Shown one piece after another: positions 1,392 through 17,915 of a DNA stretch of 64,000 bases. Below the pieces are notes generated by a model. That model saw nothing but the letters and a program-made list of their open reading frames with translations. It searched no databases and was not told the origin of the DNA. Numbering within the stretch: the first letter of the stretch is position 1; every line of letters starts with the position of its first letter. This DNA comes from an uncultured Alphaproteobacteria bacterium. GTDB lineage: Bacteria; Pseudomonadota; Alphaproteobacteria; Rhizobiales; Xanthobacteraceae. The translations under genes were made by a program, and so were the position numbers. The stretch is taken from assembly GCA_963829395.1 (NCBI GenBank), contig CAWHHX010000002.1, positions 599,779-663,778 of the forward strand, in the 5' to 3' direction.

Positions 1392-1399
1392 GGCCCGCC

Positions 1400-1480: not shown

Positions 1481-1491
1481 GAACTAAAAAA

Positions 1492-3129
1492 TCACCCCGA
1501 GCGCGCCAGCGCGCCGTCGATCATGTCGATGGTGTTTTGGATGCCGTAGGCGGCGACGAAGGAGCCGAAGCGCGGGCCTTTTTCCTGACCGAGCAGCACC
1601 TGATAGAGCATGTTGAACCAGTCGAGCGAAACGCCGGGCTTGCCGTCCTTGGCCTTTTTCTTGTGGTCGAGGAACGGCTCGCGGCGGCCGACCTCGTAGA
1701 CCACGTCTTGGATCGCTTGCGCCGACGCGTCCGCCGGCAATTGCGAGAGCGCATCGCGCAGGTCGATCAGCGCGGCGCGGCCGGCCTCGTTCGGCTCGCG
1801 GAATTGTTTTGCCGGCAGCACGAAGTCGCGGAAATAATGGATGGCGTAGTCGACCAGCTTGGCGAGATGCGGATGCGTCGCGCTGGTGACGCCTGGCCGG
1901 TAGCGAGCAATGAAGCCCCATAGGGTCTCGGCGTTCTCCGCGTTCGACGCGGTCACGAGCGACAGCAGCATGGCGAAGGTCACCGGATTGTCGGCCTTCG
2001 GCGGCGCGCCGCCATGGATGTGCCAGACCGGATTCGCCAGCCGCTCCTTCGGAGCCTGGCGCTCATAGGCTTCCAGAAACTGCTGATAGTCGTCGACGTG
2101 CCGCGGGATCACGTCGAAATAGAGCCGCTTGGCGGCTTTCGGCTCGCGGTACATGAAGAGCGACAGGCTTTCCGGACTGGCGTAGCGCAGCCACTCCTCG
2201 ATGGTGAGCCCATTGCCCTTCGACTTGGAAATTTTCTGGCCGTGCTCGTCGAGAAAAAGCTCGTAGTTGAAACCTTCCGGCGGCGCGCCACCGAGCGCGC
2301 GGCAGATTTCGCTCGACAGCTTCACGGAATCGATCAGGTCCTTGCCGGCCATCTCGTAATCGACGCCGAGCGCCACCCAGCGCATCGCCCAATCCGGCTT
2401 CCACTGCAATTTGCATTTTCCGCCGGTGACGAGCGTGGTCACGTGCTCGGCCGTGTCAGGATCCTCATACGTAATCGTTCCGGCTTTCGCATCGTGCGCG
2501 ATCACCGGCACCTGCAGCACGGCGCCGGTGCGCGGCGAGATCGGCAGGAACGGCGAATAGGATTGCGCCCGCTCCTCGCGCAGCGACGGCAGCATGATCG
2601 CCATCACCGCCTCGAAGTGCGCCAGCACTTTTAGAAGCGCGTCGTCGAAACGTCCCGATGTGTAGCAGGCGGTCGATGACAGGAATTCATAGTCGAAGCC
2701 GAACTGATCGAGAAAGGCGCGCAGCCGCGCATTGTTGTGGTCGGCGAAACTCGCGTGCGTGCCGAACGGATCGGGCACCTTGGTCAGCGGCTGGTTGAGA
2801 TATTGCGCCACCATCTCCTTGTTGGGGATGTTGTCGGGAACCTTGCGCAAGCCGTCCATATCGTCGGAGAAGGCGATCAGGCGGGTTTTGACCGTGTCGC
2901 CGGTGAGGACGCGGAAGGCGTGGCGCACCATGGTCGTGCGCGCCACTTCGCCGAAGGTGCCGATATGCGGCAGGCCGGACGGCCCGTAGCCGGTCTCGAA
3001 AATGACTTCGTCTTTCGGACGCTTCTTCAGCCGCGCCACGATCTTGCGCGCTTCCTCGAACGGCCAGGCGTTCGACTGCTCGGCAAGCGCGCGCAGGTCG
3101 GGTTCATTTTCGATCGTCACTGTCATCAT
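1492..3129 (-). CDS. lysK: lysine--tRNA ligase, class I
   Basis: Track ORF 1492..3144 (550 aa). It shows a class I synthetase HIGH-type motif ([15 protein letters not shown]) and a KMSKS-type motif (KISKSKGNG), with overall class I LysRS architecture. The track start at 3144 is TTG; ATG codons at 3129 and 3126 are more likely starts. Confidence 0.9.
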
Positions 3130-3146
3130 CGTCTGTTCTTGCAATC

Positions 3147-3225
3147 GTCATTGCGAGCGACGCGAAGCAATCCAGGAGCTTGCAGAGAGCTGGGTTGCGT
3201 CGTCGCTATCGCGCCTCGCAATGAC
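3147..3225. repeat. REP-like palindromic element, family A
   Basis: GTCATTGCGAGCGACGCGAAGCAATCCAGG...GCGCCTCGCAATGAC lies directly upstream of lysK and shares its arms with the 1400-1480 and 13303-13418 copies. Confidence 0.65.
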
Positions 3226-3262
3226 AAATCGTGGTTCGCGTGGATATCATTGTGGCTCGCGG

Positions 3263-4183
3263 CTAAAACGGGCTGATCGGGAAATAGCGAAGCCACAGAT
3301 CGGTAAAGCTTCCTTTCTCCCAAAGCTGAAATAGCGCCCAATTCAGCGTGAGTCTCATCAGATCGTTGCCGCGCTTCACGGCAATGCCGACGCCCTCGCC
3401 GAAAAAGCGGCTCTCCAGAAATGGCCCGCCGCGGAAGGCGCAGCAGCCCGCCGAATCCGCGCCGTTGAGCCAGAAGGCCAGCGCGATGCCGTCGCCGAAC
3501 AGAAGATCGACCTCCTTGCGGCGCAACGCGTCGCGCGCCGCCTCGGCGTTGGGATAGGAGCGCACCTCGGCCTCGGTGAACATCGCCTTGAGGTAGGCCT
3601 CGTGCGCGGTGCCGGCAACGACGGCGATTTTCTTGCCCTCAAGCCGTTCCGGCAGCACGTCGCCGATGGCGCTGTCGGTGCGCGCCACAAAGCGTGCCGG
3701 CGTGCGGTAATAGGCATCGGTGAAATCGGCGCGGCGGCGCGTTTCCGCCGTCGGCGCGATCGAGGCGATCACGGCGTCACCGCGATTGTCGTTGAGCGCA
3801 TCGAGCAACGTGTCGAACGGCCGCGCCTGAATGGTGCAGCTGATCTTGATCTCGTCGCAGATCAACCGCGCCAGATCGACATTGAAGCCGGCCGGATTGC
3901 CGTCGGCGCCGGTATAGTCGAACGGCGGATAGTCGACGTCGGTGAGAAAGCGGATGCTCTGGATGCGTGACAGATCCGGCCGCTCCGGCCGCCGGCGCGG
4001 GTCCCAAAAGCCGGGCACCACGACGGCGCGCGACGGCGCCGCGGTCTCGGCCGCTGCCGCCGCCGGCCGGTCGCCCGCCGCCGCAAACCCCGCGAGCACA
4101 CATAAAATGGACGCGCCGAGCGCCCCGAGACGCGCTGAGGAGACGGAGCGACTGCGCGATCGCATTACGGCGGAGGGCATCAA
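3263..4183 (-). CDS. amino-acid ABC transporter substrate-binding protein (family 3 type)
   Basis: 306 aa with a signal-peptide-like N-terminus (SARLGALGASILCVLAGFAAA). Body motifs are typical of polar amino-acid binding proteins: YPPFDY....[23 protein letters not shown]. Confidence 0.8.
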   Translation of the reverse strand: MMPSAVMRSRSRSVSSARLGALGASILCVLAGFAAAGDRPAAAAAETAAPSRAVVVPGFWDPRRRPERPDLSRIQSIRFLTDVDYPPFDYTGADGNPAGFNVDLARLICDEIKISCTIQARPFDTLLDALNDNRGDAVIASIAPTAETRRRADFTDAYYRTPARFVARTDSAIGDVLPERLEGKKIAVVAGTAHEAYLKAMFTEAEVRSYPNAEAARDALRRKEVDLLFGDGIALAFWLNGADSAGCCAFRGGPFLESRFFGEGVGIAVKRGNDLMRLTLNWALFQLWEKGSFTDLWLRYFPISPF

Positions 4184-4340
4184 TCGGCGTTTCCCATATA
4201 CGCGGCCCGCTTAGCGGGATCGCAGCAAAAAGTCGAGCCGAAGCATCGCCGCGCGCCGTTGCGTCGCCGCCAGAGGCACCACAAATTTACTGTGAGCCGG
4301 CGGTTTTCAAACACCGATTGCCGAGCGGAGAGACGGATTT

Positions 4341-5511
4341 ATGGATTACGTTCTGCATCAGCCAGTGACGGCGGCGGCGGAGCCGCCCAAGCTGCCGGGT
4401 CAAGTGGTCCTGGTCTTTCAAGGCGGCGGCGCTTTGGGTGCCTATCAGGGCGGCGTCTATCAGGCCCTGCACGAAGCCAAGATCGAACCGGACTGGGTCA
4501 TCGGGACCTCGATCGGCGCCATCAACGCCGCCATCATCGCCGGCAATGACGCCACCGTGCGTCTTGATCGCCTGCGCGAATTCTGGGAGCGGATCGAGCG
4601 CAAGCCGCTGTGGGGCGATACGCCGTTCGGCCAATTGGCCAGCAGCGCCGCCGATTATTGGATGACGATCCTCGGCGGCGTTCCGGGTTACTTCTCGCCC
4701 AACAGCGCCATGGCGTTCGGGTTCAACGCGCCGGTCGGCATCGAGCATGCCGCCTTCTACACCATCGACCAGCTGCGCAAGACGGTCGCCGACGTCGTCG
4801 ACTTCACCTGGCTCAATGCCAAGCACACGCGCCTGACCGTCGGCGCCGTCAATGTGCGCACCGGCAAAATGCATTATTTCGACAGCCGCAGCGTGCCGAT
4901 CACGCTCGACCATGTGCTTGCCTCGGGCGCGGTGCCGCCGGGCTTTCCCGGCGGTCCGCATCGACGGCGATCCGTATTGGGACGGCGGCCTCTACTCGAA
5001 CACGCCGGTCGAGGTCGTATTCGACGACAATCCGCGGCACGATTCCGTCGTGTTCTCGGTGCAGGTCTTTCCGATCGCCGGACCGGAGCCGGAATCGCTC
5101 ATGCAGGTCTTGAGCCGGCAGAAGGACATTCAATTCGCCAGCCGCGCCGACAGTCAGATTCCGCGCCAGGAGCATATCCATCAGCTTCGCCACATGGTGC
5201 GCGAACTGGTGCGCATGATGCCGGAAGCGCAACGCGAGTCGCCGGAGGTCAAGGAGATCGCCGGCTATGGCTGCGGCACGCTCATGCACATCATGCGTCT
5301 CAACGCCGCTCCGCTCGAGCACGAGGACTATCTCCGCGACCTCGATTTTTCGCGCGAGGGCATCCGTCAGCGTTGGCAGGCCGGCTATGCCGACACCTTG
5401 CGCACCTTGGAGCACAAGCCGTGGGAGATACCGATCGACCCGATGGTCGGCGTCGCCGTCTTCGATTCCGACGGCACCGACGCCACGTCGAGTTTGGAAA
5501 AAGCACGATGA
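4341..5511 (+). pseudogene. patatin-like phospholipase, reading frame broken by one extra nucleotide near 4950
   Basis: Frame 1 (4341..) has LVFQGGGALGAYQGG (oxyanion GGG) and GTSIGA (GxSxG), and runs to ...ASGAVPPGFP. Frame 2 (track ORF 4852..5511) continues AVRIDGDPYWDGGLYSNTPVE (catalytic DGG) to the C-terminus. Skipping G at 4950 (TTT CCC [G] GCG GTC) restores one 389-codon frame. Confidence 0.8.
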
Positions 5512-5626
5512 GTGTGCGGCAAAGTGTGTGACGGGCCGTCCGCCGCGCTTGTCCCGCAGTTCAAGCGGATAAGGAACCATCGCGGCCGCCTGGTCATTCT
5601 TGTTCGGCAAGCATCGCGAGGACATC

Positions 5627-6028
5627 ATGGCCGCACCAGCGACACGCCGGAAGACGGCGGCTAAATCGGGCCGTGCCAAATCAACCCGGGCCAAATCCAA
5701 CCGGGCGAAATCCCACCCGGCAAAGTCGGACCGGGGCAAGACGACACGTCGCAAAAGTGCGCACTACTGGTCGGGCCGCGTCACGCGCGAGAGTGACGCG
5801 CTCGATCTGCAAGGCGGCGTCTTTAGCCTGGACGACCCCAAACGCATTGCCGCTTCGCTGAAGCGTTCGGCAGAACGGAGCCGGCGGCGCAAGGCCGAGC
5901 CGTACCGTTCGGCGCTCTCGATGCTGGTCTTCTATATCAACCGCGCCGGCAAAAAATTGTCCGCGAGCCGGCGGCGGACGCTGGAGCGAGCCAAGATCGA
6001 GCTGCGCAGGCAATTCGGTCGGGACTGA
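5627..6028 (+). CDS. DUF3175 domain-containing protein
   Basis: Track ORF 5600..6028. ATG 5627 is preceded by GAGGA. It has a basic Lys/Arg-rich N-terminus followed by a DUF3175-like core: SDALDLQGGVFSLDDPKRIAASLKRSAERSRRRKAEPYRSALSMLVFYINRAGKKL. Confidence 0.7.
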   Translation: MAAPATRRKTAAKSGRAKSTRAKSNRAKSHPAKSDRGKTTRRKSAHYWSGRVTRESDALDLQGGVFSLDDPKRIAASLKRSAERSRRRKAEPYRSALSMLVFYINRAGKKLSASRRRTLERAKIELRRQFGRD

Positions 6029-6156
6029 GCGTTCCCAGGCGGGACGTGCTCATTTCATTGCCGGGCCAGTGATTTTGGCCCGGTCCGGCCGCTAATTTTA
6101 CCGCCAGTTAACCGAGCCCATCAATCATGGCCCCATTGCCTCCAGGGCCGGGGTCG

Positions 6157-7834
6157 ATGGCGATTTGGGACTTTTCCATTCGGACCAAGCTCGCCGCGTG
6201 GGCGACCGTCGGCGTGTTGCTGGTGGCCGGCATGCTGCTCAATCAGCAGATCGGCGACCGCTTTGCCGCGCTGCAACGCGCCGACGCGGACAACAAACAG
6301 CTCGCCGCCGCCGAAGCGTTGCGCGCCGCCTATCATGTGCGCAGCATGCAGATCGAGATCCGGGAAATTCGGCTGGCGATCGCACCGAGCGAGGTCGATC
6401 GCGCCCTGGGGAGGCTCGACGGCGATCGAACAGCCGCGGCGGCGCATCTCGCCGCCGCCCTCAATGTCGCCGACGATCCGGCCGACCGGGCGCGGCTCGA
6501 GAAGCTTGCCGGACTGGTCAAAAGCTATGCCGCCGTCGCCGGCAACCTCGCCGCCGCGGCCAAGAACTACGGCGACACGGTCGAGCAGGTCAACCGCACG
6601 ACCGCGCTCGGCGCCGAGATGAATTCTTTGATCGACGCGACGACAGCCGCACAGATGAGCGCAGCCGACGAGCGCAAGCAGCAGGCGGACGCCGAAACGG
6701 CGTTCGTCAGCCGGCTCGATCTCGGCATCGGCGTGTTCATCGTCGCCGTTCTCGGCAGCGTCGCCGTATTCGGCGCCGTCGCCATCTCCGGCCCGATCCG
6801 GCGCAGCGGCGAAGTGCTGCTGGAACTCGCCGCCGGCAACAAGAACGTCGCGGTTCCCTATACCGGGCGGCGCGACGAGGTCGGCGACAACGCCCGCGCC
6901 GCCCAGACCTTCAAGGAAAAATTGATCCGCATCGACCAACTGGAGGCGGCGGAGAAGGAAACGGTGCGGCGCGCCGCCGACGAGCGCAAAGCCGACATGC
7001 GGGCCTTGGCGAGCGCCTTCGAGACCACGGTGGCGAACGTCGTACGTTCGGTGTCGGCGTCATCGACCGAGCTCGAGGCGGCGGCGCAGGCGCTCGGCAC
7101 AACCGCGGGCGTGACGCGCGATCTGTCCGGCAAAGTCCTCGCCGCCTCGACGCAAGCCTCGCAAAATGTGCAGACGGTTGCGTCGGCCACGGAAGAGCTG
7201 ATCGGATCGGTCGGCGAGATCAGCCGGCAGGTGCAGGAATCCTCCCGCATCGCGCTGCAAGCCGTGGCGCAGGCCGGGAAAACCGACGCCCGGATCGCCG
7301 AGCTGACGCGCGCCGCCGGCCGCATCGGCGACGTCGTGAGGCTGATCACCGACATCGCCGAGCAGACCAACCTCCTGGCGCTCAATGCCACGATCGAGGC
7401 GGCTCGCGCCGGCGAGGCCGGCCGCGGTTTCGCGGTCGTCGCCCAGGAGGTCAAGGCGCTGGCGGCGCAAACCTCCAAGGCGACCGAGGAGATCGGCGTG
7501 CAAATCTCGGGCGTCCAGGCGGCGACGCAGGAACTCCGTCGCCATCATCCAGGAGATCGGCGCCACCATCGGCCGTATCGCCGAGATCGCGGCGACGATC
7601 GCCTCCGCCGTCGAGGTGCAGGCGGCGACGACGCAACAGATCGCCACGAACGTGCAAGCGGCCGCCGGCTCCACCGCGCACGTCACCGCCAACATCGCCG
7701 AAGTCAATGACAGCGCCGCCGAGATCACGTCGGCCTCCGCGCAAGTGCTCGCTTCGGCGCAGACGCTGTCGCACGAAGGCAGCCGGCTATCGGCGGAGAT
7801 GGAAGGGTTTTTCGCCGCGGTGGTGGCGGCGTGA
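6157..7834 (+). pseudogene. methyl-accepting chemotaxis protein, reading frame broken by one extra nucleotide near 7531
   Basis: There are two predicted TM segments ([43 protein letters not shown]). The MCP signalling hairpin [35 protein letters not shown] lies in frame 1. The C-terminal continuation [37 protein letters not shown] is in track ORF 7385..7834. Skipping G at 7531 (ACG CAG [G] AAC TCC) joins them. Confidence 0.85.
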
Positions 7835-7928
7835 AGCAAACCCGTAAAATGGATTGAGCGCAGCGAAACCCATCGTCTTTGCGCCCGGCAACCATCCGCG
7901 ACCTCAAAGAGGCACGCGCGCAGAGTAA

Positions 7929-8378
7929 TTAGCGATTGATCGGCCGACCAATCATGGACGGAACGTTGAAATGCCCCGGCGGTTGGGAATTTTCTTGAAT
8001 GAACTCCATAAGCTTTGTTGTGTAGGTGAACCATTCGGCCCCTCGCGTGTGACGCTCAAAGCGTTGCCCCTCTTTAAAATCATCGTGCAACTTTTGTTCA
8101 AGCTGTTCTGCCTCACGCGCGGGAAATTCACCTTTGTCAAAACAAATGATCCCCAGCAACTGAATTATCTCATGATTGGCAGATTGTATCTGCTCATGCC
8201 GAAGCCGAATACTTTGCTTCAAGTCACGCTTGTCTGGAATACATGTGGTCATGCCAATCTTGATCGCGACTGGCGGGGGACCGCCAGCACCGAAGAAATA
8301 GACAGCTCCCGGACGCCGATACCACTCCGATGACTTACGTTCTGTTTGCAGCGTAAGTTGCGAGATAATTTCTGTCAC
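7929..8378 (-). CDS. T5orf172 (GIY-YIG superfamily-like) domain protein
   Basis: Track ORF 7929..8453. GTG at 8378 sits 7 nt after GGAGGGAGG. The pattern AVYFFGAGG..VAIKIGMTT....R...IQ..N...I.LLG........AE..E..LH..F......R..GAEWF....L.EFI matches what I remember of the T5orf172/MUG113-type domain. It lies in the low-GC island. Confidence 0.6.
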   Translation of the reverse strand: MTEIISQLTLQTERKSSEWYRRPGAVYFFGAGGPPPVAIKIGMTTCIPDKRDLKQSIRLRHEQIQSANHEIIQLLGIICFDKGEFPAREAEQLEQKLHDDFKEGQRFERHTRGAEWFTYTTKLMEFIQENSQPPGHFNVPSMIGRPINR

Positions 8379-8475
8379 GGTCGTTCCTCCCTCCGCCGCG
8401 CCGATCGTAGCGCGATCCCCAATGGCGCTGGCGCCTCGTGGACGACGCAGCACAAGAGACGGGCCGAGCTACCCA

Positions 8476-9339
8476 CTAAATGGGGCATTTCGAGAAGTCG
8501 CGCGCAAAGAAATATTCGCGACTAGTGGTACTCGCAGCACGATTTAATTCAGCTAAATTTTGGTCGGTGATCAGACCGTCGGAGGCAGAATTGACAAGCG
8601 CGAGGCGCGGCGACAGTGGAATGACTGTTTGCAATGGCACGTCTGGCACGATGAACTCGCCCGATTGGGTGGAAATGACGCCCCATCTCGGTACGCCGGC
8701 GGCCAACTGTCGACTGTAAGCGTCTATGCGCAATTGCAGCGTCACGCCGTTGAGTTGCCGGGCGGGCATTCTGCCGCCCTTCCGCGCGAAGAGGTAGCCG
8801 TTCTTTTCTAAATTCTCTTCCTGCTCCTTCGTGACAGCGTCGCCGACAACGCCGTTGAGGTGAATTTCTTGCTCTTCAAGGTTCCTGTAACGGGAACGCA
8901 TGTACCAGAGGGCAAACATCCTATCGATAGTCGCCTTGTCCTCCGACGCGATCGCTCCAACCTTTTTGTCGATGATGGGATCGACAGTCGCCTGAAACTG
9001 ATCCTCGATCCGCTTCATGTAGCCAGCTTCGGTCCTCTGATCCCACGCCCGAGACGCGCAAAACAACGGATTGTTAGGCTTCGTGGCGATGACCTTGCCG
9101 CGCTTCATAAGAAACGCTGTCACAAGGCCACCTTGGGCGAAATGCTCCATCGTTTGCAGCGGAAACACATGCTGGTTGATGGTCAGGCGATTTGGGTTGC
9201 CGGGGCGCGTCCTTTCAGACCTCGTTCTTTTCGGTCGCTTTGCAGACAGCGTTGCCGCCATCACAGCGGCGGCGGGATGCGAGCCAAGGCCCGGTCGCTG
9301 CCGTGGATCATCAAGGATTTTGGTCATCGTGTTGGGCAT
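8476..9339 (-). CDS. DUF4238-like protein
   Basis: 287 aa, with alternative starts at 9327 and 9261. Landmarks resemble DUF4238: an N-terminal H-x-(V/F)-P motif (NQHVFPLQTMEHF), the mid region IDRMFALWYMRSRY, and the C-terminal W.VI....EFIVPDVP......IPLSPRLALV. Assignment is from memory of the family pattern, not from a search. Confidence 0.5.
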   Translation of the reverse strand: MPNTMTKILDDPRQRPGLGSHPAAAVMAATLSAKRPKRTRSERTRPGNPNRLTINQHVFPLQTMEHFAQGGLVTAFLMKRGKVIATKPNNPLFCASRAWDQRTEAGYMKRIEDQFQATVDPIIDKKVGAIASEDKATIDRMFALWYMRSRYRNLEEQEIHLNGVVGDAVTKEQEENLEKNGYLFARKGGRMPARQLNGVTLQLRIDAYSRQLAAGVPRWGVISTQSGEFIVPDVPLQTVIPLSPRLALVNSASDGLITDQNLAELNRAASTTSREYFFARDFSKCPI

Positions 9340-9598
9340 CAGATGGTCAAAGGGCGCTGGGTAGTCCTGGTAATCCTGCTATTTTTCGCTTAACTCTGAA
9401 ATCGCTGTTGATAGAAGATCGGTCGAAAAGTGATTCTAAGGCAAGATCAAAATCACGCAAATTACCCGGGATTACCCAGCATCGAAATGAGCGCCCGCGA
9501 CGTGTAATCGAGTAATTTTCCGGGCGTTAGCCCGGTCGTATATCTAGCCACTTTCACGTTATAATTGCGCTCGTGCAACCAATTCGCGAGCATTTCAA

Positions 9599-9769
9599 AT
9601 GGCCTTCGACCGCACCGCCGGCAACCATCGTTTTGGTTTTTCAGATGAAGTTTGCGTCAGATGCGGCATGACGCGGGAATATTTTCAGGATCACGGCAGG
9701 CCCGTGTGCACAGGACAGAAGCCGGAAAAACGCGAACCCCTCCCCATTGAGGACGACGACAATGGCTGA
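9599..9769 (+). CDS. hypothetical 56-aa protein with a CxxC...C Zn-ribbon-like motif
   Basis: Below the ORF-track length cutoff. Translation: MAFDRTAGNHRFGFSDEVCVRCGMTREYFQDHGRPVCTGQKPEKREPLPIEDDDNG. Its stop overlaps the next gene start (ATGGCTGA). A perfect TATAAT lies at 9560-9565. No clear Shine-Dalgarno, so confidence is low. Confidence 0.3.
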   Translation: MAFDRTAGNHRFGFSDEVCVRCGMTREYFQDHGRPVCTGQKPEKREPLPIEDDDNG

Positions 9770-10186
9770 CGACAAATACGCTGCTCTTGTAGCGCAAGCG
9801 GAGAAGGCCGTTGCAGCGGTAAAGGACCCCTCCCTTAAGCAGATCGCGTTTCAGAAAATACTGATGACCTGCTAAGCGCAAACGAGCAAGAATCGCCGCC
9901 ATCTCGCACTACTAAAGCCGCCAAAAAGGAGCCGAAGGCGAATAAAGTCAGGGGCAGCGCCAGAGGCGGCCCGACAAAATATATTCAAGAGCTGATCGGC
10001 GACAATTTTTTCAAAAAGCCAAAAACCATTTCCGAAGTGAAAGCGGAGCTTGGTAACAGAGGCCACCATATTGCCCTTACCTCCCTTAGTGGCCCCTTGC
10101 AAAATCTTTGCAAGGCGAGAGTTTTAAGGCGGGAGAAGGCAAAAGGCGAAAATAAGAGACAGACGTTCGTCTATTCAATCTTTTAA
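9762..10186 (+). pseudogene. hypothetical protein with a C-terminal winged-helix-like domain; frame broken by one missing nucleotide near 9863
   Basis: Not in the ORF track. ATG 9762 follows GAGGA and gives MADDKYAALVAQAEKAVAAVKDPSLKQIAFQKIL, then TAA at 9873. The adjacent frame has no start codon but reads on coherently: DDLLSANEQESPPSRTTKAAKKEPKANKVRGSARGGPTKYIQELIGDNFFKKPKTISEVKAELGNRGHHIALTSLSGPLQNLCKARVLRREKAKGENKRQTFVYSIF, stopping at 10186. Restoring one G (CTG [G]AT GAC) makes a single 141-codon gene. Confidence 0.45.
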
Positions 10187-10191
10187 ACACC

Positions 10192-10962
10192 ATGCCCCCT
10201 CGCCGGAGCAACGACGACACAAATTCACCTGCTAGTGTCTTGGAGTATCTAGCCAAGCAAGCTGTGGATACTACCAAAAAAGCCCGAAACAATCGTGTTT
10301 CGCTGTCGGGCGACAATTTCTACGGCAACAAACTCGCAAATTTGCGTTTGGGAGCTACGCGGGCCTTTGAAGAGTTTGCAGCACAATCGACGGGCGATGC
10401 CGCTACCGTGGCCGAATTGATTGGAACCATCTTTGACCCTTCCACCGCGCAGCGTGATCGCCTAAACGCATACCGAGAGCTTTCATTTTCTTTGCAAACG
10501 ACTTGGCGAAAGGCTTCGGAAAGCCCTCCACCCGAAGGTGCCAATTCGTTTTTCCCACCCTCGATTTTGGCGCGAGCCAAGCGCGGCTACATTACATCTA
10601 TCGGTCGCCAGATGAACGCTTGCTATGAGGCAGGCTGCCGTGACGCCTGCGCGGTGATGATGCGGAGACTATTGGAAATCGGCATCATTGAGGCGTTCGA
10701 GCACAAGGGTATTGCCCATAGAATCAAAGATAACAACGACAATTATTTTCACTTGTCGCAGCTAGTTGACCTCACGCTGGCAGAGCCAGCTTTTTCGCTT
10801 TCCCGAAACACCAAAAAGGCTCTTCCTAAATTGCGTGACGCAGGCCATCTCTCCGCTCACGGTCGATATTTTCTTGCTGCCCCGGAGGACCTTGAGAAGA
10901 TGCGCGGCGAGTGCCGGATCGTTCTAGAGGAATTTCTCCATCTATCCGGACTTCTGAATTGA
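10192..10962 (+). CDS. DUF4145 domain-containing protein
   Basis: 256 aa, starting 5 nt after the previous stop. The C-terminal half (IGRQMNACYEAGCRDACAVMMRRLLEIGIIEAF....LSQLVDL......LSRNTKKALPKLRDAGHLSAHG) resembles the DUF4145 helical domain known from restriction-enzyme-associated proteins. The N-terminal 120 aa are unassigned. Confidence 0.55.
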   Translation: MPPRRSNDDTNSPASVLEYLAKQAVDTTKKARNNRVSLSGDNFYGNKLANLRLGATRAFEEFAAQSTGDAATVAELIGTIFDPSTAQRDRLNAYRELSFSLQTTWRKASESPPPEGANSFFPPSILARAKRGYITSIGRQMNACYEAGCRDACAVMMRRLLEIGIIEAFEHKGIAHRIKDNNDNYFHLSQLVDLTLAEPAFSLSRNTKKALPKLRDAGHLSAHGRYFLAAPEDLEKMRGECRIVLEEFLHLSGLLN

Positions 10963-10975
10963 GGACGACGACGAA

Positions 10976-11131
10976 ATGGGCACAGACATTCTTCAGGACC
11001 TAAAAAGTTGGCTTGCACAATTGGTCGCGGACGCCCCGCACCGTCGCGGCCAAATGCCTGAAATCGAAATTGATTACGTCCGCCGCGCGATCGAGGAGAT
11101 CGAGCGATTGCGTGCTGCGGAGAAGAAGTAG
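10976..11131 (+). CDS. hypothetical 51-aa helical/coiled-coil miniprotein
   Basis: Below the ORF-track cutoff. Translation: MGTDILQDLKSWLAQLVADAPHRRGQMPEIEIDYVRRAIEEIERLRAAEKK. It is preceded by the same 15-nt ATTGAGGACGACGAC box that precedes the 9762 start. Confidence 0.3.
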   Translation: MGTDILQDLKSWLAQLVADAPHRRGQMPEIEIDYVRRAIEEIERLRAAEKK

Positions 11132-11347
11132 GCGATTGCGGACCGCCAACGCGCCGGGCTGCGCTTTTCAAGCGCTCCGCCGGAGCATTACACGCGTAAC
11201 GATTTCTCTGGGGACGCTCTCAAAAAACCGTCCTATAATAGTGGTGGTCGAGCTTTTACCTCCGCGAAACTGGCCCCTCCGTTAGCAGCAAAACGCGCGT
11301 AAAAGGTTCGGGAACAATACGATAAATGCCGATTAAATATGGGTTTC

Positions 11348-11422
11348 GCGGGCGTAGTTCAGTGGTAGAACATCAGCTTCCCAAGCTGAGTGTCGTGGGT
11401 TCGATTCCCATCGCCCGCTCCA
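11348..11422 (+). tRNA. tRNA-Gly (anticodon CCC)
   Basis: GCGGGCG TA GTTC AGTGGTA GAAC A TCAGC TTCCCAA GCTGA GTGTC GTGGG TTCGATT CCCAT CGCCCGC T CCA. This folds as a clean cloverleaf with a 7-bp acceptor stem, anticodon loop TT-CCC-AA and an encoded CCA. It closely resembles the E. coli glyU-type sequence. Confidence 0.92.
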
Positions 11423-11461
11423 ATGCTTTGTAACGCGCCACGCGGCAAAACGGGGTGACCG

Positions 11462-11680
11462 ATGGATCAGCGGACAAGCCAGCCGGCCGAGCGGCAGCGG
11501 GGATGGAGCTGGTGGTACCTCCTGTTCGTGATCCAATTCGTCGCGGTGCTGTGGCCGCCGTTTTATAACAAGGCCGAGCCGGCCTTGATCGGCATGCCGT
11601 TCTTCTACTGGTACCAGCTTCTCTGGGTCATCATCGGCGCCGTTCTGACCGCGATCGTGTACGTCGCCACCAGAGATTAG
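11462..11680 (+). CDS. DUF3311 domain-containing small membrane protein
   Basis: 72 aa with two hydrophobic segments (WWYLLFVIQFVAVLWPPFYN....GMPFFYWYQLLWVIIGAVLTAIVY). It sits in the characteristic position immediately upstream of a sodium:solute symporter gene. Confidence 0.75.
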   Translation: MDQRTSQPAERQRGWSWWYLLFVIQFVAVLWPPFYNKAEPALIGMPFFYWYQLLWVIIGAVLTAIVYVATRD

Positions 11681-11745
11681 AACCAGCGCGTCGTTTTTCA
11701 CCTCTCCCGCTTTGGAGAGAGGGCGCAACAATCGGGGGAGACGCC

Positions 11746-13290
11746 GTGGCGGAGGTGAACTGGACTGCGCTGATCATTTTTGTCGTGCTGTTTGCCTTCA
11801 TCACCTGGCTCGGCTTTGCGGCGGCGCACTGGCGCAAGGGCGACCTCGACCAGCTGCATGAATGGGGGCTCGGCGGCCGGCGGTTCGGCACCATCATCAC
11901 CTGGTTCCTGATCGGCGGCGATCTCTACACGGCCTATACCTTCATCGCCGTGCCGGCGCTGGCATTCGGCGCCGGCGCCGTCGCCTTCTTCGCCGTGCCT
12001 TACACCATCATGATCTATCCGATCCTGTTCCTGGTTTTCCCGCGGCTCTGGCATGTCTGTCACAAGCACAACTACATCACGCCGGCCGATTTCGTCCGCG
12101 GTCGCTTCGGCAATCGCTGGCTGGCGCTGGCGACGGCGATCACCGGCCTGATCGCGACCATGCCCTACATCGCCCTGCAGCTGGTCGGCTTACAGGTGGT
12201 CATCGCCGGCATGGGCGTTTCCGGCACCGGCATCATGGGCGACCTGCCGCTCGCCATCGCCTTCATCATCCTGGCGGCTTTCACCTATTCCAGCGGGCTG
12301 CGCGCGCCGGCCTCGATCGCCGTCGTCAAGGACGTCCTGATCTATGTCACAGCGTTCGCCGCGGTGATCGTGGTGCCGATCCAGATGGGCGGCTTCGGCA
12401 AGATTTTTGCTGCGGTGCCACAGGCGAAATTGCTGCTGGCCACGCCGGCCGCCCATTCGACCGGCGCCTTCAGCTATTACGCAACGCTGGCGCTCGGCTC
12501 GGCGCTGGCGCTGTTCCTCTATCCGCATTCCGTCACCGGCATATTGAGCGCGTCGAGCGGCCGCGCCATCCGCCGCAATGCGGCGATGCTGCCGGGCTAT
12601 TCATTCATGCTCGGGCTCCTTGCTCTGGTCGGCTTCTTCGCCATCGCCGCCGGCGTCGGCAGCCTTCCCGAGTTCGCCGAAGGCTTCAAGCAGTTCGGCA
12701 CCAATTTCGCGGTGCCGGCGCTGTTCCTGCACAGTTTCCCGTCCTGGTTCGTCGGCATCGCCTTTGCCGCGGTCGGCATCGGCGCCCTGGTGCCGGCGGC
12801 GATCATGTCGATCGCGGCGGCCAATCTCTATACCCGCAACATCCATCGCGAGTTCATCAACCCCAATCCGACCGACAAGCAGGAAGCGCGGATGGCAAAG
12901 TGGGTGTCGCTGATCGTCAAGTTCGGCGCGCTCGTCTTCATCGTGGTCGAGCCGGCGCAATATGCGATTTATCTGCAGCTGCTCGGCGGCATCCTGATCA
13001 TCCAAACGCTGCCGGCGATCATGCTCGGCGTCTATACGCGCTGGTTCAACGATTGGGCGCTGCTGGTCGGCTGGGCGGTGGGGATGGCGACCGGCACCGC
13101 GATGTTCGTTGTGGTCAACACGCCCAATTATCCGTTGGCGATCGCCGGTTTCGTCTTTCCGGGCTATGCGGCGATCTACAGCGTCGTGCTCAATCTTGCC
13201 GTCGCGGTCGTGCTCACCCCGGTGTTCAACGCCATGAGCAGCAGCAAGGCGCCGCGCGACGCGACGGTGGCGGCGGATTATCGGGCGTAG
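11746..13290 (+). CDS. sodium:solute symporter family transporter (MctP-like)
   Basis: 514 aa and strongly hydrophobic throughout. The SSF-type N-terminus reads FVVLFAFITWLGFAAAHWRKGDLDQLHEWGLGGRRFGTIITWFLIGGDLYTAYTFIAVPA. It is paired with DUF3311. Confidence 0.85.
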   Translation: MAEVNWTALIIFVVLFAFITWLGFAAAHWRKGDLDQLHEWGLGGRRFGTIITWFLIGGDLYTAYTFIAVPALAFGAGAVAFFAVPYTIMIYPILFLVFPRLWHVCHKHNYITPADFVRGRFGNRWLALATAITGLIATMPYIALQLVGLQVVIAGMGVSGTGIMGDLPLAIAFIILAAFTYSSGLRAPASIAVVKDVLIYVTAFAAVIVVPIQMGGFGKIFAAVPQAKLLLATPAAHSTGAFSYYATLALGSALALFLYPHSVTGILSASSGRAIRRNAAMLPGYSFMLGLLALVGFFAIAAGVGSLPEFAEGFKQFGTNFAVPALFLHSFPSWFVGIAFAAVGIGALVPAAIMSIAAANLYTRNIHREFINPNPTDKQEARMAKWVSLIVKFGALVFIVVEPAQYAIYLQLLGGILIIQTLPAIMLGVYTRWFNDWALLVGWAVGMATGTAMFVVVNTPNYPLAIAGFVFPGYAAIYSVVLNLAVAVVLTPVFNAMSSSKAPRDATVAADYRA

Positions 13291-13302
13291 GCGGCGATTG
13301 TC

Positions 13303-13418
13303 GTCATTGCGAGCGAAGCGGAGCAATCAAGGGCGGCCTGCGCGCGAAAGCTGGATTGCTTCGCGGAGCTTGTCATCGGGCCGGCCACTTCGGGCCGAAC
13401 CCGTTGGCTCGCAATGAC
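13303..13418. repeat. REP-like palindromic element, family A (extended copy)
   Basis: GTCATTGCGAGCGAAGCGGAGCAATCAAGG...CTGGATTGCTTCGCGGAGC...GGCTCGCAATGAC lies between the converging ends of the symporter and TPP-enzyme genes. Confidence 0.65.
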
Positions 13419-13426
13419 GGGTAGAT

Positions 13427-15172
13427 TTACATCCGCGTGACGCGGACGTGCAGCAGCGCGGAGCGGCCGCCGCGGACCTCCTTGGCGCAGCGCGCGATCG
13501 CTGCCGGCACTTCGGCCGGGTCGCTGAGCTTCTCCGCATAGGCGCCGAACGCTTCCGCGACCTTGCCGAATTCGACCTTGGGCGCGAGCTCGGCCTCGAA
13601 TTCGTTGGCGGCGCTCGCCTCGCCGTCGGGATAGACCCGCAGCGTCGATTGCTTGACCGCCGACCAGCCGGAATTGTCGAGGATGATCGAGAGAAACGGC
13701 AGGCGGTATTGCTGCGCGACCGCAAACACCGAGCACGGATTGCAGAAATAGAAGCCGCCGTCGCCGGCGACTTGCACCATCATCCGGTTCGGCGCGGCAA
13801 GCTTGGCGCCGAGCGCCATGGCGCCCGACCAGCCGAGCCCGGCGCCGTTGGTGTTGAACGCGGTGTTGGGCACGCGGCGCGGAATCTGCATCAGCACCGC
13901 CGGCGTGTTGGTGACCGCCTCGTTGAAAATAATATCGTCGTCGTCGAGCACCTTGCCGAGCTCCGCCATGAAGTAATGCGGATTGATCGCACCAGGCTTG
14001 CCGTGATCGGCGGCGAGCTTGGCGGCGTGCGCGAGCCGCGCTTGGCGCGTCGCTTTCAGCCGATCGCGCCGGGCCGCCGCCGCCGCCTTGAAGCCCGGCG
14101 TCGCTTTGGCTTTCAGCTCCGTGAGCAACTGATCGAGGATGCGGCCGGTATGGCCCTGCAGGCGCAAGTTGCCGGGAAAGGTCCACATCGGCGAGCCCAG
14201 CTTGAGCACGTCGACATCGATATGGGCCCAGAAGGTTTTATCGTTCGGCTCGACGTCGGCAGGAAACCACGGCGCTTCCACGTCGACGAGGAGGCCGACA
14301 TCGGTTTCGGGCAGAGCCTCGTCCGGTGAAAAGCCGGCGAAACACGGGCTCTCATAGGAGATGTTGCTTTTCGAGTTTGCCTCATAGATCGGAATCCCGG
14401 CGAATTGCGCGAGCTCGTCGATCTTGGCCGCCGCCAGCGCATCCATGCCGCCATAGCCGGTGATCAGGATCGGATTTTGCGCCGCCAGCAGGCGGTCGGC
14501 CAGCGCGGCCACCAGCGCCGGATCGGCGCCGGCGCCGGCCAGCGCACCGAACCGGTCGGACGGAAAGCGTTTGATGTCGTCGACGCTCCAATGCTGCGTC
14601 AAGGTTTCACGCTGCATCATCAGATAGACCGGCCCGCACGGCGCGCTCTGCATGATCGAATAAGCCCGCTGCAGCGCTTCCTTGACGACGACGCCCGATG
14701 GCAGCGTCCACTCCCATTTGGTGTAAGGCCGCACCAGGCTCCCCTGATCGAACGGCTCCTGGACGAAATGCACGTGGGTGTCGCGCGTTCCGATCAGCTC
14801 ATCGTGCGAGGTATAGGGCGCCTTGCCTGCCATCAGCAGCACCGGCAGGCGGCTGCGGTAGAGATTGTGCATGGCGTTGGCGGCATTGGCGGTGCCGACA
14901 TCGACATGCACCAGCACGCCTTGGCCGCGGCCGGTAACCAGCGCATAGCCTCCGGCCATGTGCGCCGCCGTATTCTCGTGCGGACAGCGCACGATGTCCG
15001 GCATCGCCTCGCCGCGCTTTCGCCGATGCGCCATTTCCTCGATGATCGGCGCGTGATCGGTGCCGAGATTGCAGAACAAATAATCGATGCCGATCTCTTT
15101 GAGACCCTCGAGCAGATAATAAGCGCTGGAGAAATCGCTGACGTTGGTGTTCCGCCCTACCGATGTATCCAT
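13427..15172 (-). CDS. thiamine pyrophosphate-binding enzyme (acetolactate synthase large-subunit-like)
   Basis: 581 aa. The N-terminal TPP_N pattern reads AYYLLEGLKEIGIDYLFCNLGTDHAPIIEE....CPHENTAAHMAGGYALVTGRGQGVLVHVDVGTANA. The C-terminal TPP-binding stretch reads GAGLGWSGAMALGAKLAAPNRMMVQVAGDGGFYF. Confidence 0.85.
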   Translation of the reverse strand: MDTSVGRNTNVSDFSSAYYLLEGLKEIGIDYLFCNLGTDHAPIIEEMAHRRKRGEAMPDIVRCPHENTAAHMAGGYALVTGRGQGVLVHVDVGTANAANAMHNLYRSRLPVLLMAGKAPYTSHDELIGTRDTHVHFVQEPFDQGSLVRPYTKWEWTLPSGVVVKEALQRAYSIMQSAPCGPVYLMMQRETLTQHWSVDDIKRFPSDRFGALAGAGADPALVAALADRLLAAQNPILITGYGGMDALAAAKIDELAQFAGIPIYEANSKSNISYESPCFAGFSPDEALPETDVGLLVDVEAPWFPADVEPNDKTFWAHIDVDVLKLGSPMWTFPGNLRLQGHTGRILDQLLTELKAKATPGFKAAAAARRDRLKATRQARLAHAAKLAADHGKPGAINPHYFMAELGKVLDDDDIIFNEAVTNTPAVLMQIPRRVPNTAFNTNGAGLGWSGAMALGAKLAAPNRMMVQVAGDGGFYFCNPCSVFAVAQQYRLPFLSIILDNSGWSAVKQSTLRVYPDGEASAANEFEAELAPKVEFGKVAEAFGAYAEKLSDPAEVPAAIARCAKEVRGGRSALLHVRVTRM

Positions 15173-15398
15173 GGATGAAGCCCAGCCGTTCCTAGGTTTA
15201 AATCCCTCGCACTATAGCATCATAGCGTCAGCTCGCGCCCACCGGCTGCGCACGCGCCGAGCGGCCCGGCCGGCACCATGACAAAAGCTTGGCGTTCCCC
15301 CGGAAATTTACCCTCCACACAATTCTCTGGACCGCCCTCCGAACTCTCGCCACAATAGGCAGGGATGGTCACGGGCGGAACGGGGAAAGGTCTCAAGC

Positions 15399-15866
15399 AT
15401 GAAGTGGCAGGCAGCCTTGGTCGGCGCATTGGCGTCGGCTGCGCTCTCGACTGTGGTTTTCGCACCGGCGGCTTATGCGGAAGTCCACATCGTCAACGAT
15501 CCGGGCGGCGAAGTCAGCGAATATGCCCAGAAATTCCACGAACTGAGCGAAGCCGGCGAACATCTCGTCATCGACGGGCCCTGTCTTTCGGCCTGCACGT
15601 TGTTCACGGCCTTTATTCCGCGCGACCATGTCTGCGTGACACGCCGCGCGGTGCTGGGGTTCCACGCCGCATCTTATTTCGATGACGCGAGGCGCTCGCT
15701 GGTGCCGACGCGCAAGGGCACGGCCTTGATCATGAAGCTCTATCCGCCGGAGATCCGCAGTTGGATCGAGCGACATGGCGGCTTAACGCCGCACATCCTC
15801 GCGATGCGCGGCAAGGAGCTCACGGCGCTCTACGACACCTGCCCGGAAGAGGGCGTCGGCAACTAA
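15399..15866 (+). CDS. hypothetical secreted protein
   Basis: 155 aa with a clear signal peptide (MKWQAALVGALASAALSTVVFAPAAYA). No family recognised with confidence; conserved Cys residues lie in GPCLSACTLF and HVCVT. Confidence 0.55.
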   Translation: MKWQAALVGALASAALSTVVFAPAAYAEVHIVNDPGGEVSEYAQKFHELSEAGEHLVIDGPCLSACTLFTAFIPRDHVCVTRRAVLGFHAASYFDDARRSLVPTRKGTALIMKLYPPEIRSWIERHGGLTPHILAMRGKELTALYDTCPEEGVGN

Positions 15867-15949
15867 GCGCCCGCCACCAGGCGCTACGATCCGATCGGTT
15901 GTCGGCTGCCGCGTTCGGACCTATTTACGATAGGTCCGAGAGAAAGCCG

Positions 15950-16120
15950 ATGCCTGTCACACCACGCCTGACCGCACCACGCCCGACGTCGAAGCCGCTG
16001 ATTGTGGCGGGCGGAGCGATTGTGGTCGCGCTGGCGGGCACGCTCTGGCTCTGGGCCCAATACGGCACGACGATATTCTTCGAGACCATCCGTACCGGCT
16101 TTGCCGCCTGCTTCGGCTGA
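15950..16120 (+). CDS. hypothetical 56-aa single-pass membrane protein
   Basis: This is the inner part of track ORF 15761..16120. ATG 15950 follows GAGAGAAAG. Translation: MPVTPRLTAPRPTSKPLIVAGGAIVVALAGTLWLWAQYGTTIFFETIRTGFAACFG. It ends 11 nt before the SCO gene. Confidence 0.4.
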   Translation: MPVTPRLTAPRPTSKPLIVAGGAIVVALAGTLWLWAQYGTTIFFETIRTGFAACFG

Positions 16121-16131
16121 CGGAGGATGGC

Positions 16132-16737
16132 GTGAGCGACCCGAAAGCCGTTTCCCGCGTCCTGCCGGTTATCGGCGCCTTCGTCGCCGGGCTCGTCCTG
16201 GTGCTGGGCGTCTTGGTGTATCTGACCGGACATTCGGCCTCGCCGATCGGACGCGCGATGGCGTCCGTGGGCGGTCCCTTTCACCTAGAGGACCAGAGCG
16301 GCAAGCCGGTCAGCGATGTGGACATGAAGGGCCGGCCGTTCCTGGTGTTCTTCGGCTACACCCATTGTCCGGACGTCTGTCCGACCACCTTGTTCGAGAT
16401 TTCCGAAGTCATGAAGGCGCTCGGCAAGGATGCCGACCGCACCGGAGCGCTGTTCATCACCGTCGATCCGGCGCGCGATACGCCGGCCGTGCTCAAGGAC
16501 TATTTGTCGAATTTCGACCCGCATTTGCGCGGCCTGACCGGCGATCCCGCGGCAGTCGAGGCGGCGCTCAAGGCCTATCGGGTTTATGCGGCGAAAATCC
16601 CGCTCAAGGACGGCGACTACACCATGGACCACACCGCCGCCGTCTATCTCATGGACAAAGACGGCCGCTTCGTCGCGACCTTCAATCTCAAGCAGACGCC
16701 CGAAGCGGCAGCCAGCCAGTTGCGCGGCTATCTGTAA
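16132..16737 (+). CDS. SCO family copper chaperone / thiol-disulfide protein (Sco1/SenC)
   Basis: 201 aa with an N-terminal TM anchor, the CPDVCP (CxxxC) motif, FITVDPARDTP, and a downstream His in MDHTAAVYLMD. GTG start after GGAGGA. Confidence 0.85.
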   Translation: MSDPKAVSRVLPVIGAFVAGLVLVLGVLVYLTGHSASPIGRAMASVGGPFHLEDQSGKPVSDVDMKGRPFLVFFGYTHCPDVCPTTLFEISEVMKALGKDADRTGALFITVDPARDTPAVLKDYLSNFDPHLRGLTGDPAAVEAALKAYRVYAAKIPLKDGDYTMDHTAAVYLMDKDGRFVATFNLKQTPEAAASQLRGYL

Positions 16738-16752
16738 GGCGCGCCCGTTCGG

Positions 16753-17649
16753 TCAGTCCGAAATCCGTCCCAAGGCATAGAGTGCGTCGAGCAGGATGCC
16801 GGGACGCGAACCGAAAAACCACCGCTCGAACAGGTCGACCGTTTTGCCGGAGCGGAAAATCTGCGCCAGTCCGGTATTCACCGCCAGGCGGAAAGCCCAA
16901 TCGCCGCGCGGCAGGACGATTGCATATTGTTCGATCGATAGATCGTCCGGCAGCATCACGAAAGCTTCCGGATGTTTGATCTGGGCGCCGGCCAGCAAGA
17001 GCTTGTCGCTGGCGAAGCCATCGACCTTGCCTGCTTCGAGCGCCGCGACCGCTTCGTCGCGATCCTTGACCGCCACAAGCGTGACATTGAGGCTTCGCGC
17101 CCGCACCTGTTCGGTCGCGACGCGCTCATTGGTCGTGCCGGCGACGACGGCGATCTTCTTGCCAGCCAGCTCGGCAAAAGAATGAATGTTGGACGCGGCC
17201 CCGACCAGGACGCCGGTGGATTCGACAAAGACCAGATTGGAGAAGTCGATTTCTTTCATGCGGCCGAGCGTCACCGTGCTCGAGCCGCATTCCAGATCCG
17301 CCTTGCCGCCGGCGACGGCGGAGAACCGGCTCTCGACCGTCACCGGCACCCATTCGATCTTCAGCTCGGACGATCCAAACTGCTGCTCGATCGATTTCGT
17401 CACCTGCTTGCAGAGGTCGATGGTGTAACCGAGCGGCTCCTTGGCGTCGTTGACGAACGCAAACGGCCGGGCGTCGGCGCGGTAGGCGATGCGAATGACC
17501 TTCTTGGCCAGGATGGTTTTCAGGCGGCTGTCGGCCGGGACGTGCGTCTCCGCCGCCAGTGCCGCGGCCGATACCAGCAGCGCGCACGAAACGGCTGCCA
17601 AACGGAGAGTGATCCTTGCGCCCCGACTGCCTGCGACATTGCCCCGCAT
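16753..17649 (-). CDS. amino-acid ABC transporter substrate-binding protein
   Basis: Track ORF 16753..17676 starts at TTG; ATG 17649 gives [33 protein letters not shown], a signal peptide. The body is a typical family 3 [17 protein letters not shown].....[18 protein letters not shown]. Confidence 0.8.
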
Positions 17650-17915
17650 GTTTTCACCACCACCCTGTTGCTCCAACTGCCGGCGATCTTAGACGCGGCA
17701 GCACGGTGGGGATAGCCCGCCTTGGTGCTGAAACTGATGAAACAATGCGTGCCAGCCAGGCGCCATTCGCTGCGCGGCGCAACGGCCGCTCGCGGCCAAC
17801 GCAAGGCCTGAAAGCACGTAGAGAAAAACGGACTAGAAACAGAGTGTTCCAAGGCACATTGACGGGAGCGCCCGGCGCCCCTATAAGCGCCCCTTCACGA
17901 AACCCCATATCGATC

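Follow-up and report, generated by a model that had tools for sequence, protein, structure and literature searches.

HEPN domains usually act as dimers, and their classical catalytic dyad is Rx4-6H. HEPN toxins occur in toxin-antitoxin (TA) and abortive infection (Abi) modules, for example HEPN-MNT, RnlAB/LsoAB and AbiEi-AbiEii. The DUF4145 domain has been classed as a HEPN family (PMC3710099). RNases of this family were characterised mechanistically only recently, in RAZR/PD-T7-4, where R146 and H154 are required for defence, single-stranded RNA is cleaved and the infection is aborted (PMC13017515). PD-λ-5 is a compact two-gene system that combines restriction-modification (R-M) with Abi, and its other gene is labelled a methyltransferase (PMC9519451). 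For DUF4238, Rousset et al. reported that a single protein from the P2 hotspot of E. coli gives strong resistance to T7 (PMC9122126). Here we compare these systems with a small low-G+C insertion (the islet) in a 64,000-nt stretch of DNA (the window; positions 599,779 to 663,778 of contig CAWHHX010000002.1, assembly GCA_963829395.1) from an uncultured alphaproteobacterium of the Xanthobacteraceae. The islet lies between a chemoreceptor gene and a tRNA-Gly(CCC) gene. It holds six open reading frames (ORFs), with orf1 and orf2 on the minus strand and orfA, orfB, orfC and orfD on the plus strand.

An initial annotation, made from the sequence alone, had described this layout correctly, apart from a frameshift in orfB at about 9863. 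Its observation that nothing in the islet is housekeeping also held, and its guesses of T5orf172, DUF4238, winged helix-turn-helix (wHTH) and DUF4145 domains were right at family level (Pfam, and AlphaFold2 (AF2) plus Foldseek for the wHTH). What we could not maintain is its view that the genes form one system or two functional modules, as they do not co-occur elsewhere. We consider it rather probable that the islet is a mosaic of three independent cassettes, namely orf1, orf2 and a TA-like or Abi module with a HEPN domain, orfB-orfC, and not one system. Integrative elements and defence islands carry cassettes of this kind.

A metagenome scan with orfC gave 80 loci, 67 of which had enough room upstream to be informative. 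An intact orfB homolog was found directly 5′ of orfC in all of these (67/67), and the gap between the two genes was -18 to +25 nt in 58 loci. In the window, the spacings are -8 nt for orfA-orfB, +5 nt for orfB-orfC and +13 nt for orfC-orfD. Homologs of orf1, orf2, orfA and orfD were seen in none of the 80 orfC metagenome loci, and no third conserved partner emerged when 143 ORFs around the pair were scanned in 33 non-redundant loci. Judged from gene order and sequence, a predicted winged-helix protein and a DUF4145/HEPN protein form an obligate and tightly coupled pair in orfB-orfC. The overlapping four-ORF unit that had been proposed for the plus strand was thus kept for its orfB-orfC core, but lost orfA, which recurred only in one locus (L171), and orfD, which recurred in none.

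The six ORFs could also be read, as in the initial annotation, as a single, so far undescribed defence system in which two divergent modules cooperate. They are clustered in one low-GC block with a common divergent intergenic region, and all of their domains are of defence type. This reading is very improbable and largely refuted, because the 80 orfC loci are without orf1, orf2 and orfD, seven contexts of orf2 homologs are without orf1 and orfB/orfC, and the context of an orf1 homolog (L170) is without the others. Likewise, the minus-strand module of orf1 plus orf2 fell apart, since the seven orf2 contexts and the one orf1 context each lack the other gene. Moreover, similarity to the nearest relatives (L003/L004 and L171) breaks at the borders of the cassettes. 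The lack of co-occurrence elsewhere and the end of similarity at these borders together imply that the cassettes are independent. The islet is therefore a warning against calling novel systems of several genes because the genes are neighbours in one genome.

Gene orfC (10192-10962, plus strand) encodes a 256-aa predicted HEPN RNase effector, assigned through a family match to PF13643. A family-specific helical N-domain (about residues 10-110) is followed by a DUF4145-type HEPN domain (about 125-255) that contains R215 and H223. We found at least 885 homologs. They are about 255 aa long, 50-57% identical in most cases and derived mostly from environmental metagenomes and metagenome-assembled genomes (MAGs). 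Of 35 family members, 34 had a match to PF13643 at E <= 0.1 (best 5.6e-8), and a precomputed match to it was present in about a fifth of the homologs listed. The core LRDxGHxSAHGR is conserved; in the alignment of 35 sequences, H223 never varies, and R215 occurs in at least 90%, with K in its place in a few. The Rx7H spacing of R215 and H223 is that of R146 and H154 in RAZR (PMC13017515). In the AF2 model (pLDDT 83.7), the protein is all-helical with two domains, residues 1-120 forming four helices and residues 106-117 a disordered linker. Judging by the family match and the conserved residues, orfC is a DUF4145-type HEPN protein with an apparently intact catalytic dyad, from which we infer a latent RNase. 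A search of plasmids with orfC gave no match.

Gene orfB (9762-10186, plus strand) encodes the winged-helix partner, of about 141 aa when repaired. Its family includes at least 444 proteins, and proteins of this type start with a conserved helical hairpin, continue with a variable, basic and disordered linker and end in a conserved wHTH domain. In an AF2 model built on database homologs, the C-terminal domain was arranged as H-β-H-H-β-β. All top Foldseek matches of this model were winged-helix proteins (PadR, Fur, CzrA and BlaI), with a probability of ~1.0 and an rmsd of ~2 Å over ~70 residues.

In the assembly, the loss of one nucleotide at about 9863 (CTG[G]ATGAC) breaks orfB into two frames; the window reads CTGATGAC there, and the homologs predict CTGGATGAC. 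The homolog P0242 aligns with its residues 1-34 in frame 3 (9762-9863) and its residues 35-139 in frame 2 (9863-10183). Conserved core genes of the window also have frameshifts relative to their orthologs, at about 4945 (patatin-like), 7535 (chemoreceptor), 16123 and 17115. In addition, the lnt ORFs at 40.6-42.2 kb look split (at about 41620). The density of frameshifts in core genes points to assembly indel errors, typical of long-read metagenome assembly, rather than to pseudogenes. Thus, the frameshift of orfB is probably an assembly error, and the gene would be intact in the organism.

If the frameshift were real, the cassettes might be non-functional and decaying, as what is left of an integrative element that once sat at tRNA-Gly. 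The absence of an integrase and of an attachment (att) repeat, and the orphan status of orfA and orfD, would fit with such decay. We regard it as improbable, since the frameshifts in core genes speak for assembly indel errors, and orf1, orf2 and orfC are of full length and align with their families from end to end.

Several described systems resemble orfB-orfC in part. Like RAZR/PD-T7-4 (PMC13017515, PMC9519451), orfC has a divergent HEPN domain of the DUF4145 type with Rx7H; small genes and homologs that frequently adjoin an integrase are common to both. However, one gene encodes RAZR, and the protein carries a Cys4 zinc ribbon at its N-terminus, whereas orfC has a helical N-domain with no Cys4 motif and an obligate upstream wHTH partner. 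The PADLOC model PD-T7-4 was matched neither by orfC of the window nor by 35 members of its family. We therefore rejected membership of RAZR/PD-T7-4, given the missing zinc ribbon, the two-gene organisation and the missing model match. As for PD-λ-5, the model PD-Lambda-5_A was matched weakly by 23 of 35 members of the orfC family (best 3.7e-5), presumably via the common HEPN/DUF4145 region, and was not matched by the window protein. The partner of orfC is a 140-aa wHTH protein and not a methyltransferase, and no methyltransferase is conserved beside the pair. Membership of PD-λ-5 was rejected as well, for want of a methyltransferase partner and of a strong model match.

There is also a likeness to HEPN-toxin type II/IV TA and Abi modules (partly PMC3710099), in which a small upstream DNA-binding partner precedes a downstream HEPN toxin-like protein. 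Tight translational coupling of a two-gene operon is common to them and to orfB-orfC. The pair also has the organisation of a type II TA module, in which a toxin-domain protein is tightly coupled to, and strictly inherited with, a small DNA-binding partner. On the other hand, orfB is neither an MNT nucleotidyltransferase nor RnlB-like, and its wHTH is C-terminal. On this comparison, orfB-orfC is best filed as a putative variant of the HEPN RNase TA/Abi module kind.

The defence catalogues gave little for the pair. In PADLOC v2 no model was matched by orfB or orfC of the window, and NCBIfam gave no match for any of the six islet proteins. The claim that the islet matches no named system was not quite right for orf2, whose family includes the validated single-gene anti-T7 DUF4238 system (PMC9122126). 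Similarly, DUF4145 can no longer be called uncharacterised, being the HEPN RNase domain of RAZR/PD-T7-4 (PMC13017515), although orfB-orfC itself has no name. The pair is a cleanly bounded, strictly conserved HEPN module that these catalogues barely recognise or miss.

We somewhat favour the interpretation that orfB-orfC is a TA or Abi module with an RNase, as its domains and gene organisation suggest. Under this model, the two genes would be transcribed as a tight bicistron from the divergent promoter region. The winged helix of orfB might autoregulate the operon, its N-terminal hairpin might hold orfC inactive, or both. Activation might follow from a phage infection that the N-domain of orfC senses, or from the loss of a labile orfB. 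The HEPN domains would then dimerise or be released, and RNA cleavage would lead to growth arrest.

Several observations weigh against this interpretation or against the family assignments in the mosaic. PF13643 matched orfC itself below threshold (18.4 bits, cut-off 23.1, E 0.002) and PF14022 matched orf2 itself weakly (14.7 bits, cut-off 27), so that both assignments rest on the families. Foldseek found no significant structural match in PDB or BFVD for the full-length model of orfC; the HEPN matches of the whole model were weak (1o3u, 2hsb, Csm6 6tug and Csx1-Crn2 8y7f, all with E above 1). A profile of the orfC family recovered no solved relative among PDB sequences, and RAZR was not recovered either. 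The neighbourhoods of orfB-orfC are mostly housekeeping, with R-M genes near only 1-2 of the 33 loci, and give no sign of enrichment in defence islands. Finally, orfB is frameshifted in the assembly; if this is real, an intact toxin without its partner disfavours an essential antitoxin role.

Recurrent in these neighbourhoods were four integrases, two resolvases and, in 1-2 loci, a type I R-M set. In one locus (L176), a tyrosine integrase precedes the pair at the margin of a prophage-like element, and an IMG/VR contig (L093/L173) has the pair beside a P4-type tyrosine integrase. In eight distinct loci, the pair has a tRNA gene no more than 3 kb away. The pair is frequently cargo of integrative elements.

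One further locus, L002, has a tRNA-Gln about 180 bp upstream of orfB, and a three-gene operon (9136-13213; 536, 184 and 644 aa) with no Pfam match on record downstream of orfB-orfC. The first protein of this operon ends, by eye, in an HKD/PLD-like motif (HDRF...GSSLN).

The cargo position by integrases, together with the scattered and mostly housekeeping chromosomal contexts rather than defence islands, would also fit a plain addiction module that stabilises its host integrative elements or islets without sensing phages. Such a module would likewise be a small coupled operon with an upstream DNA-binding partner. Nevertheless, we hold it to be rather unlikely, because orfC has a conserved N-domain of about 110 residues with invariant residues, which would be superfluous for a minimal toxin, and because the other DUF4145 proteins in the papers cited, RAZR and PD-λ-5, are anti-phage (PMC13017515, PMC9519451). 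The addiction and phage-sensing roles are also compatible with each other. More tentatively than the TA/Abi assignment, but with somewhat more weight than plain addiction, we suggest that orfB-orfC might be a widespread, unnamed two-gene system against phages or mobile elements, in which the N-domain would sense the invader and the wHTH would gate the RNase. If true, this would be a second architecture, with another sensor and a separate wHTH partner, in which the same effector is wired to different triggers. Its activation logic would then be unlike the assembly of zinc-finger rings in RAZR. The orfB-orfC cassette with its promoter measures about 1.4 kb, small enough for direct cloning.

The islet that carries these cassettes is real. 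Sliding-window G+C was computed, as the initial annotation had proposed. The segment 7925-11347 has 53.1% G+C. The corresponding figures are 65.4% on its left (1-7850), 62.6% on its right (11423-20000) and 63.6% for the window overall. No other 3.4-kb stretch of the window is poorer in G+C, and this one lies 6.8 standard deviations under the mean of 16 non-overlapping 3.4-kb windows. G+C at third codon positions is 0.51-0.66 in the islet ORFs versus 0.82-0.87 in the chemoreceptor, symporter and ThDP-enzyme genes. An abrupt change had been described at both ends. The left edge is indeed sharp, with G+C falling from 0.70 (7.4-7.8 kb) to 0.52 (7.8-8.2 kb), but the right edge is softer, with 0.55-0.57 up to 11.6 kb and 0.60-0.65 thereafter. 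Nucleotide collinearity with relatives ends at 7837-7871 and restarts at 11316-11348. This bounds the insertion at about 7841/7872 to 11315/11347, which is ~50 bp or less from the limits first proposed. On the evidence of G+C and collinearity, we place the strain-specific low-GC insertion at 7872-11315, between the chemoreceptor gene (stop codon at 7832-7834) and the conserved upstream region of tRNA-Gly.

The tRNA-Gly(CCC) gene (11348-11422, plus strand) was the one tRNA that ARAGORN found in the window. It is a conserved right neighbour outside the insertion and adjoins the DUF4212/symporter genes in most relatives. The islet abuts it on its 5′ side. No integrase or transposase domain was detected by Pfam in any islet ORF, and no tRNA-derived repeat of 10 nt or longer was found within 6001-11340; all of this is as had been supposed. 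We therefore rejected the idea that the islet retains an att repeat derived from the tRNA or the remains of an integrase, no such domain or repeat having been found. We also rejected a classical tRNA-integrated genomic island, as there is no integrase and no repeat of the tRNA 3′ end, and the insertion is at the 5′ side of the tRNA.

For comparison with related genomes, we scanned for the symporter protein and kept one genome per species, which gave 80 loci at 80-91% identity. Nearly all were MAGs of Xanthobacteraceae or 'Alphaproteobacteria', with Bradyrhizobium and Pseudolabrys in addition. No homolog of any islet ORF was found within 10 kb of the symporter ortholog in these 80 loci, in agreement with the proposal that the block is foreign and strain-specific. 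We looked for the same block with native composition in all relatives, and among the 80 loci this was not the case. The chemoreceptor ortholog is close to tRNA-Gly in some relatives, as had been predicted: the distance is 77 bp in L047, 99 bp in L076 and about 530 bp in six others (L040, L043, L050, L051, L054 and L063). In these near-empty relatives the slot spans 77-550 bp. Other relatives have the slot filled by 1-6 kb of unrelated genes with native G+C. By ORF translation alone, these fillers resemble TetR- and GntR-type regulators, transporters and transposases of the insertion sequence (IS) types IS110 and IS630. Since the slot is empty or differently filled in relatives, it is variable, and the content of the islet is specific to this strain. 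The islet is small, horizontally acquired, strain-specific DNA in a variable slot, and as a whole it is an ordinary piece of acquired DNA.

We rejected the view that the slot serves relatives as a hotspot dedicated to defence genes, because the fillers, known from their translations only, have native G+C and are regulator-, transporter- or IS-like. As a side observation, the chemoreceptor gene is absent at the slot in L010, L014 and L017, which are three of the four closest relatives; for the fourth, L012, the upstream region is missing from the data.

An artefact of assembly or binning, with a chimeric join in the MAG, could also produce a low-GC block. The relatives are all MAGs, and the window has many indel errors. 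Even so, we give this explanation hardly any credence, because many relatives are collinear with the window on either side of the block, the junctions lie within an intergenic slot whose content varies there too, and L171 independently has orfA, orfB and orfC beside a 100%-identical tRNA-Gly(CCC).

The second cassette is orf2 (8476-9339, minus strand), a solo protein of 287 aa that belongs to the DUF4238 family through its homologs, which match PF14022. We found 275 homologs at 50-76% identity, and PF14022 was matched by 22 of 30 that were sampled (best 3.6e-8). Homologs from Burkholderia of 57-60% identity bear the NCBI label 'DUF4238 domain-containing protein'. In seven contexts (L003-L009), three of them distinct, the orf2 homologs are solo genes, and no homolog of orf1, orfB or orfC was found in these seven. 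The homolog in L003/L004 is situated between RNase J and an MFS transporter, amid core genes, and nucleotide similarity to the window covers orf2 alone. In L005 (Bradyrhizobium, 8942-13503), the DUF4238 homolog adjoins a CBASS-like operon (a patatin, an E1/E2/JAB fusion and a 375-aa protein), and a large serine recombinase is near. In L006-L009 (Burkholderia), the homolog is at the variable end of an integrase/AlpA/primase element, and its neighbour is a retron-type reverse transcriptase, SLATT or Fic gene. More distant relatives were found in 217 plasmids and 2 IMG/VR contigs; tblastn of orf2 against GenBank phages gave no match.

The described E. coli P2-hotspot DUF4238 system is labelled 'Rst_DUF4238' in DefenseFinder. 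The protein encoded by orf2 is in the same Pfam family as that system (PMC9122126), a likeness at family level only; it also stands alone, and its homologs occur in variable mobile regions. It differs in belonging to a divergent alpha- and beta-proteobacterial subfamily, and no PADLOC model matches it. A match of orf2 to the PADLOC model mREase_II (E 0.007, over a short stretch) was weak and was treated as noise. Based on its homologs, orf2 is a divergent predicted member of DUF4238, a family with one validated defence member, to which it is likened at family level. Together with its homologs, it adds environmental alpha- and beta-proteobacterial members to this poorly understood family.

An IMG/VR contig (L174, 760-6834) has two DUF4238-family genes in tandem. 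One is a canonical 322-aa gene starting 'HYVARTYLKHF' and the other is a 307-aa gene of the orf2 type. A QueC-like ATP-pyrophosphatase gene stands beside the tandem and may belong to another defence cluster.

The third cassette is orf1 (7929-8378, minus strand; the longest ORF extends to 8453), an orphan T5orf172/MUG113 gene of the GIY-YIG clan according to Pfam. Both domains scored above their cut-offs (MUG113, 23.4 bits versus 22.3; T5orf172, 22.8 bits versus 20). The usual motifs of these proteins are present, with 'VYFF...IKIGMT' near the N-terminus and 'E..LH..F....EWF' further on. Relatives start to align near query residue 38, and the GTG codon at 8378 has GGAGGGAGGA ahead of it, read from the sequence as a Shine-Dalgarno element. 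Both facts suggest that the product is probably 149 aa long and starts at GTG 8378. An exhaustive phmmer search of 1.84 billion representatives retrieved only 80 cluster representatives. Most of those listed are shorter than about 200 aa (mostly ~110-190 aa), with a few of 255-295 aa. Compared with other T5orf172/MUG113 proteins, orf1 shares the Pfam-level match and the motifs but represents a rare stand-alone subfamily, without a fused or linked partner domain. The one context that was retrieved for an orf1 homolog (L170) has CreA and a Phd/YefM antitoxin near and no DUF4238 gene. No match was obtained in GenBank phages by tblastn. Presumably, orf1 is a DNA-binding protein or a nuclease.

The minus- and plus-strand genes are separated by a divergent intergenic region (9340-9598), which is the likely promoter/operator of the plus-strand operon. 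A consensus scan found no canonical sigma-70 site in it; a TATAAT at 9560-9565 is kept in L171. That locus is the nearest relative, with 84% nucleotide identity over window positions 9551-10970. The TATAAT, orfA, orfB (intact in L171) and orfC are common to both, and similarity stops after orfC.

Gene orfA (9599-9769, plus strand) is a lineage-specific 56-aa ORF or leader of doubtful coding status that overlaps orfB by 8 nt. Its homolog, found in L171 only (76% aa identity), has a 2-nt indel near the start and has lost the CxxC and H residues. Substitutions between the window and L171 were distributed over the three codon positions as 6/6/13. Thus, orfA may be a short peptide or a mere leader. 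We rejected orfA as a separate zinc ribbon like that of RAZR, because CxxC/His are not kept in L171 and an indel is present there. At the other end of the unit, orfD (10976-11131, plus strand) is a 51-aa orphan ORF of doubtful status, without homologs in any fetched locus. Neither orfA nor orfD had a match in Pfam, PADLOC or NCBIfam.

An exact 15-nt direct repeat, ATTGAGGACGACGAC, brackets orfB-orfC on the plus strand. Copy 1 (9746-9760) is just before the ATG of orfB, and copy 2 (10958-10972) spans the stop codon of orfC and precedes the ATG of orfD. The repeat contains the Shine-Dalgarno sequence GAGGA, and we estimate that about 0.007 pairs of this length are expected by chance in 3.9 kb. 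Copy 2 coincides with the right end of the segment common to L171. At both equivalent sites (about 715-727 and 1943-1955), L171 has ATTGAGGATGACG, with the same C-to-T change in each copy. The repeat was found in none of the more distant orfB-orfC loci. Either a recombination junction or the reuse of a Shine-Dalgarno/translation-initiation element may account for it.

Three more observations concern L171 (1-2674). The gene after orfC is different there and is TIR-like by sequence. The cassette is about 270 bp from a 100%-identical tRNA-Gly(CCC), also on the 5′ side but inverted. An apparent integrase C-terminus is seen on the 3′ side of this tRNA.

Two further low-GC spots (0.49-0.55) were noticed in the window, at 18200-19000 and 42000-42750. 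The first is native, as relatives carry matching DNA at about 70% identity. The second is mostly intergenic and extends from lnt to a small XRE-type HTH gene upstream of metK.

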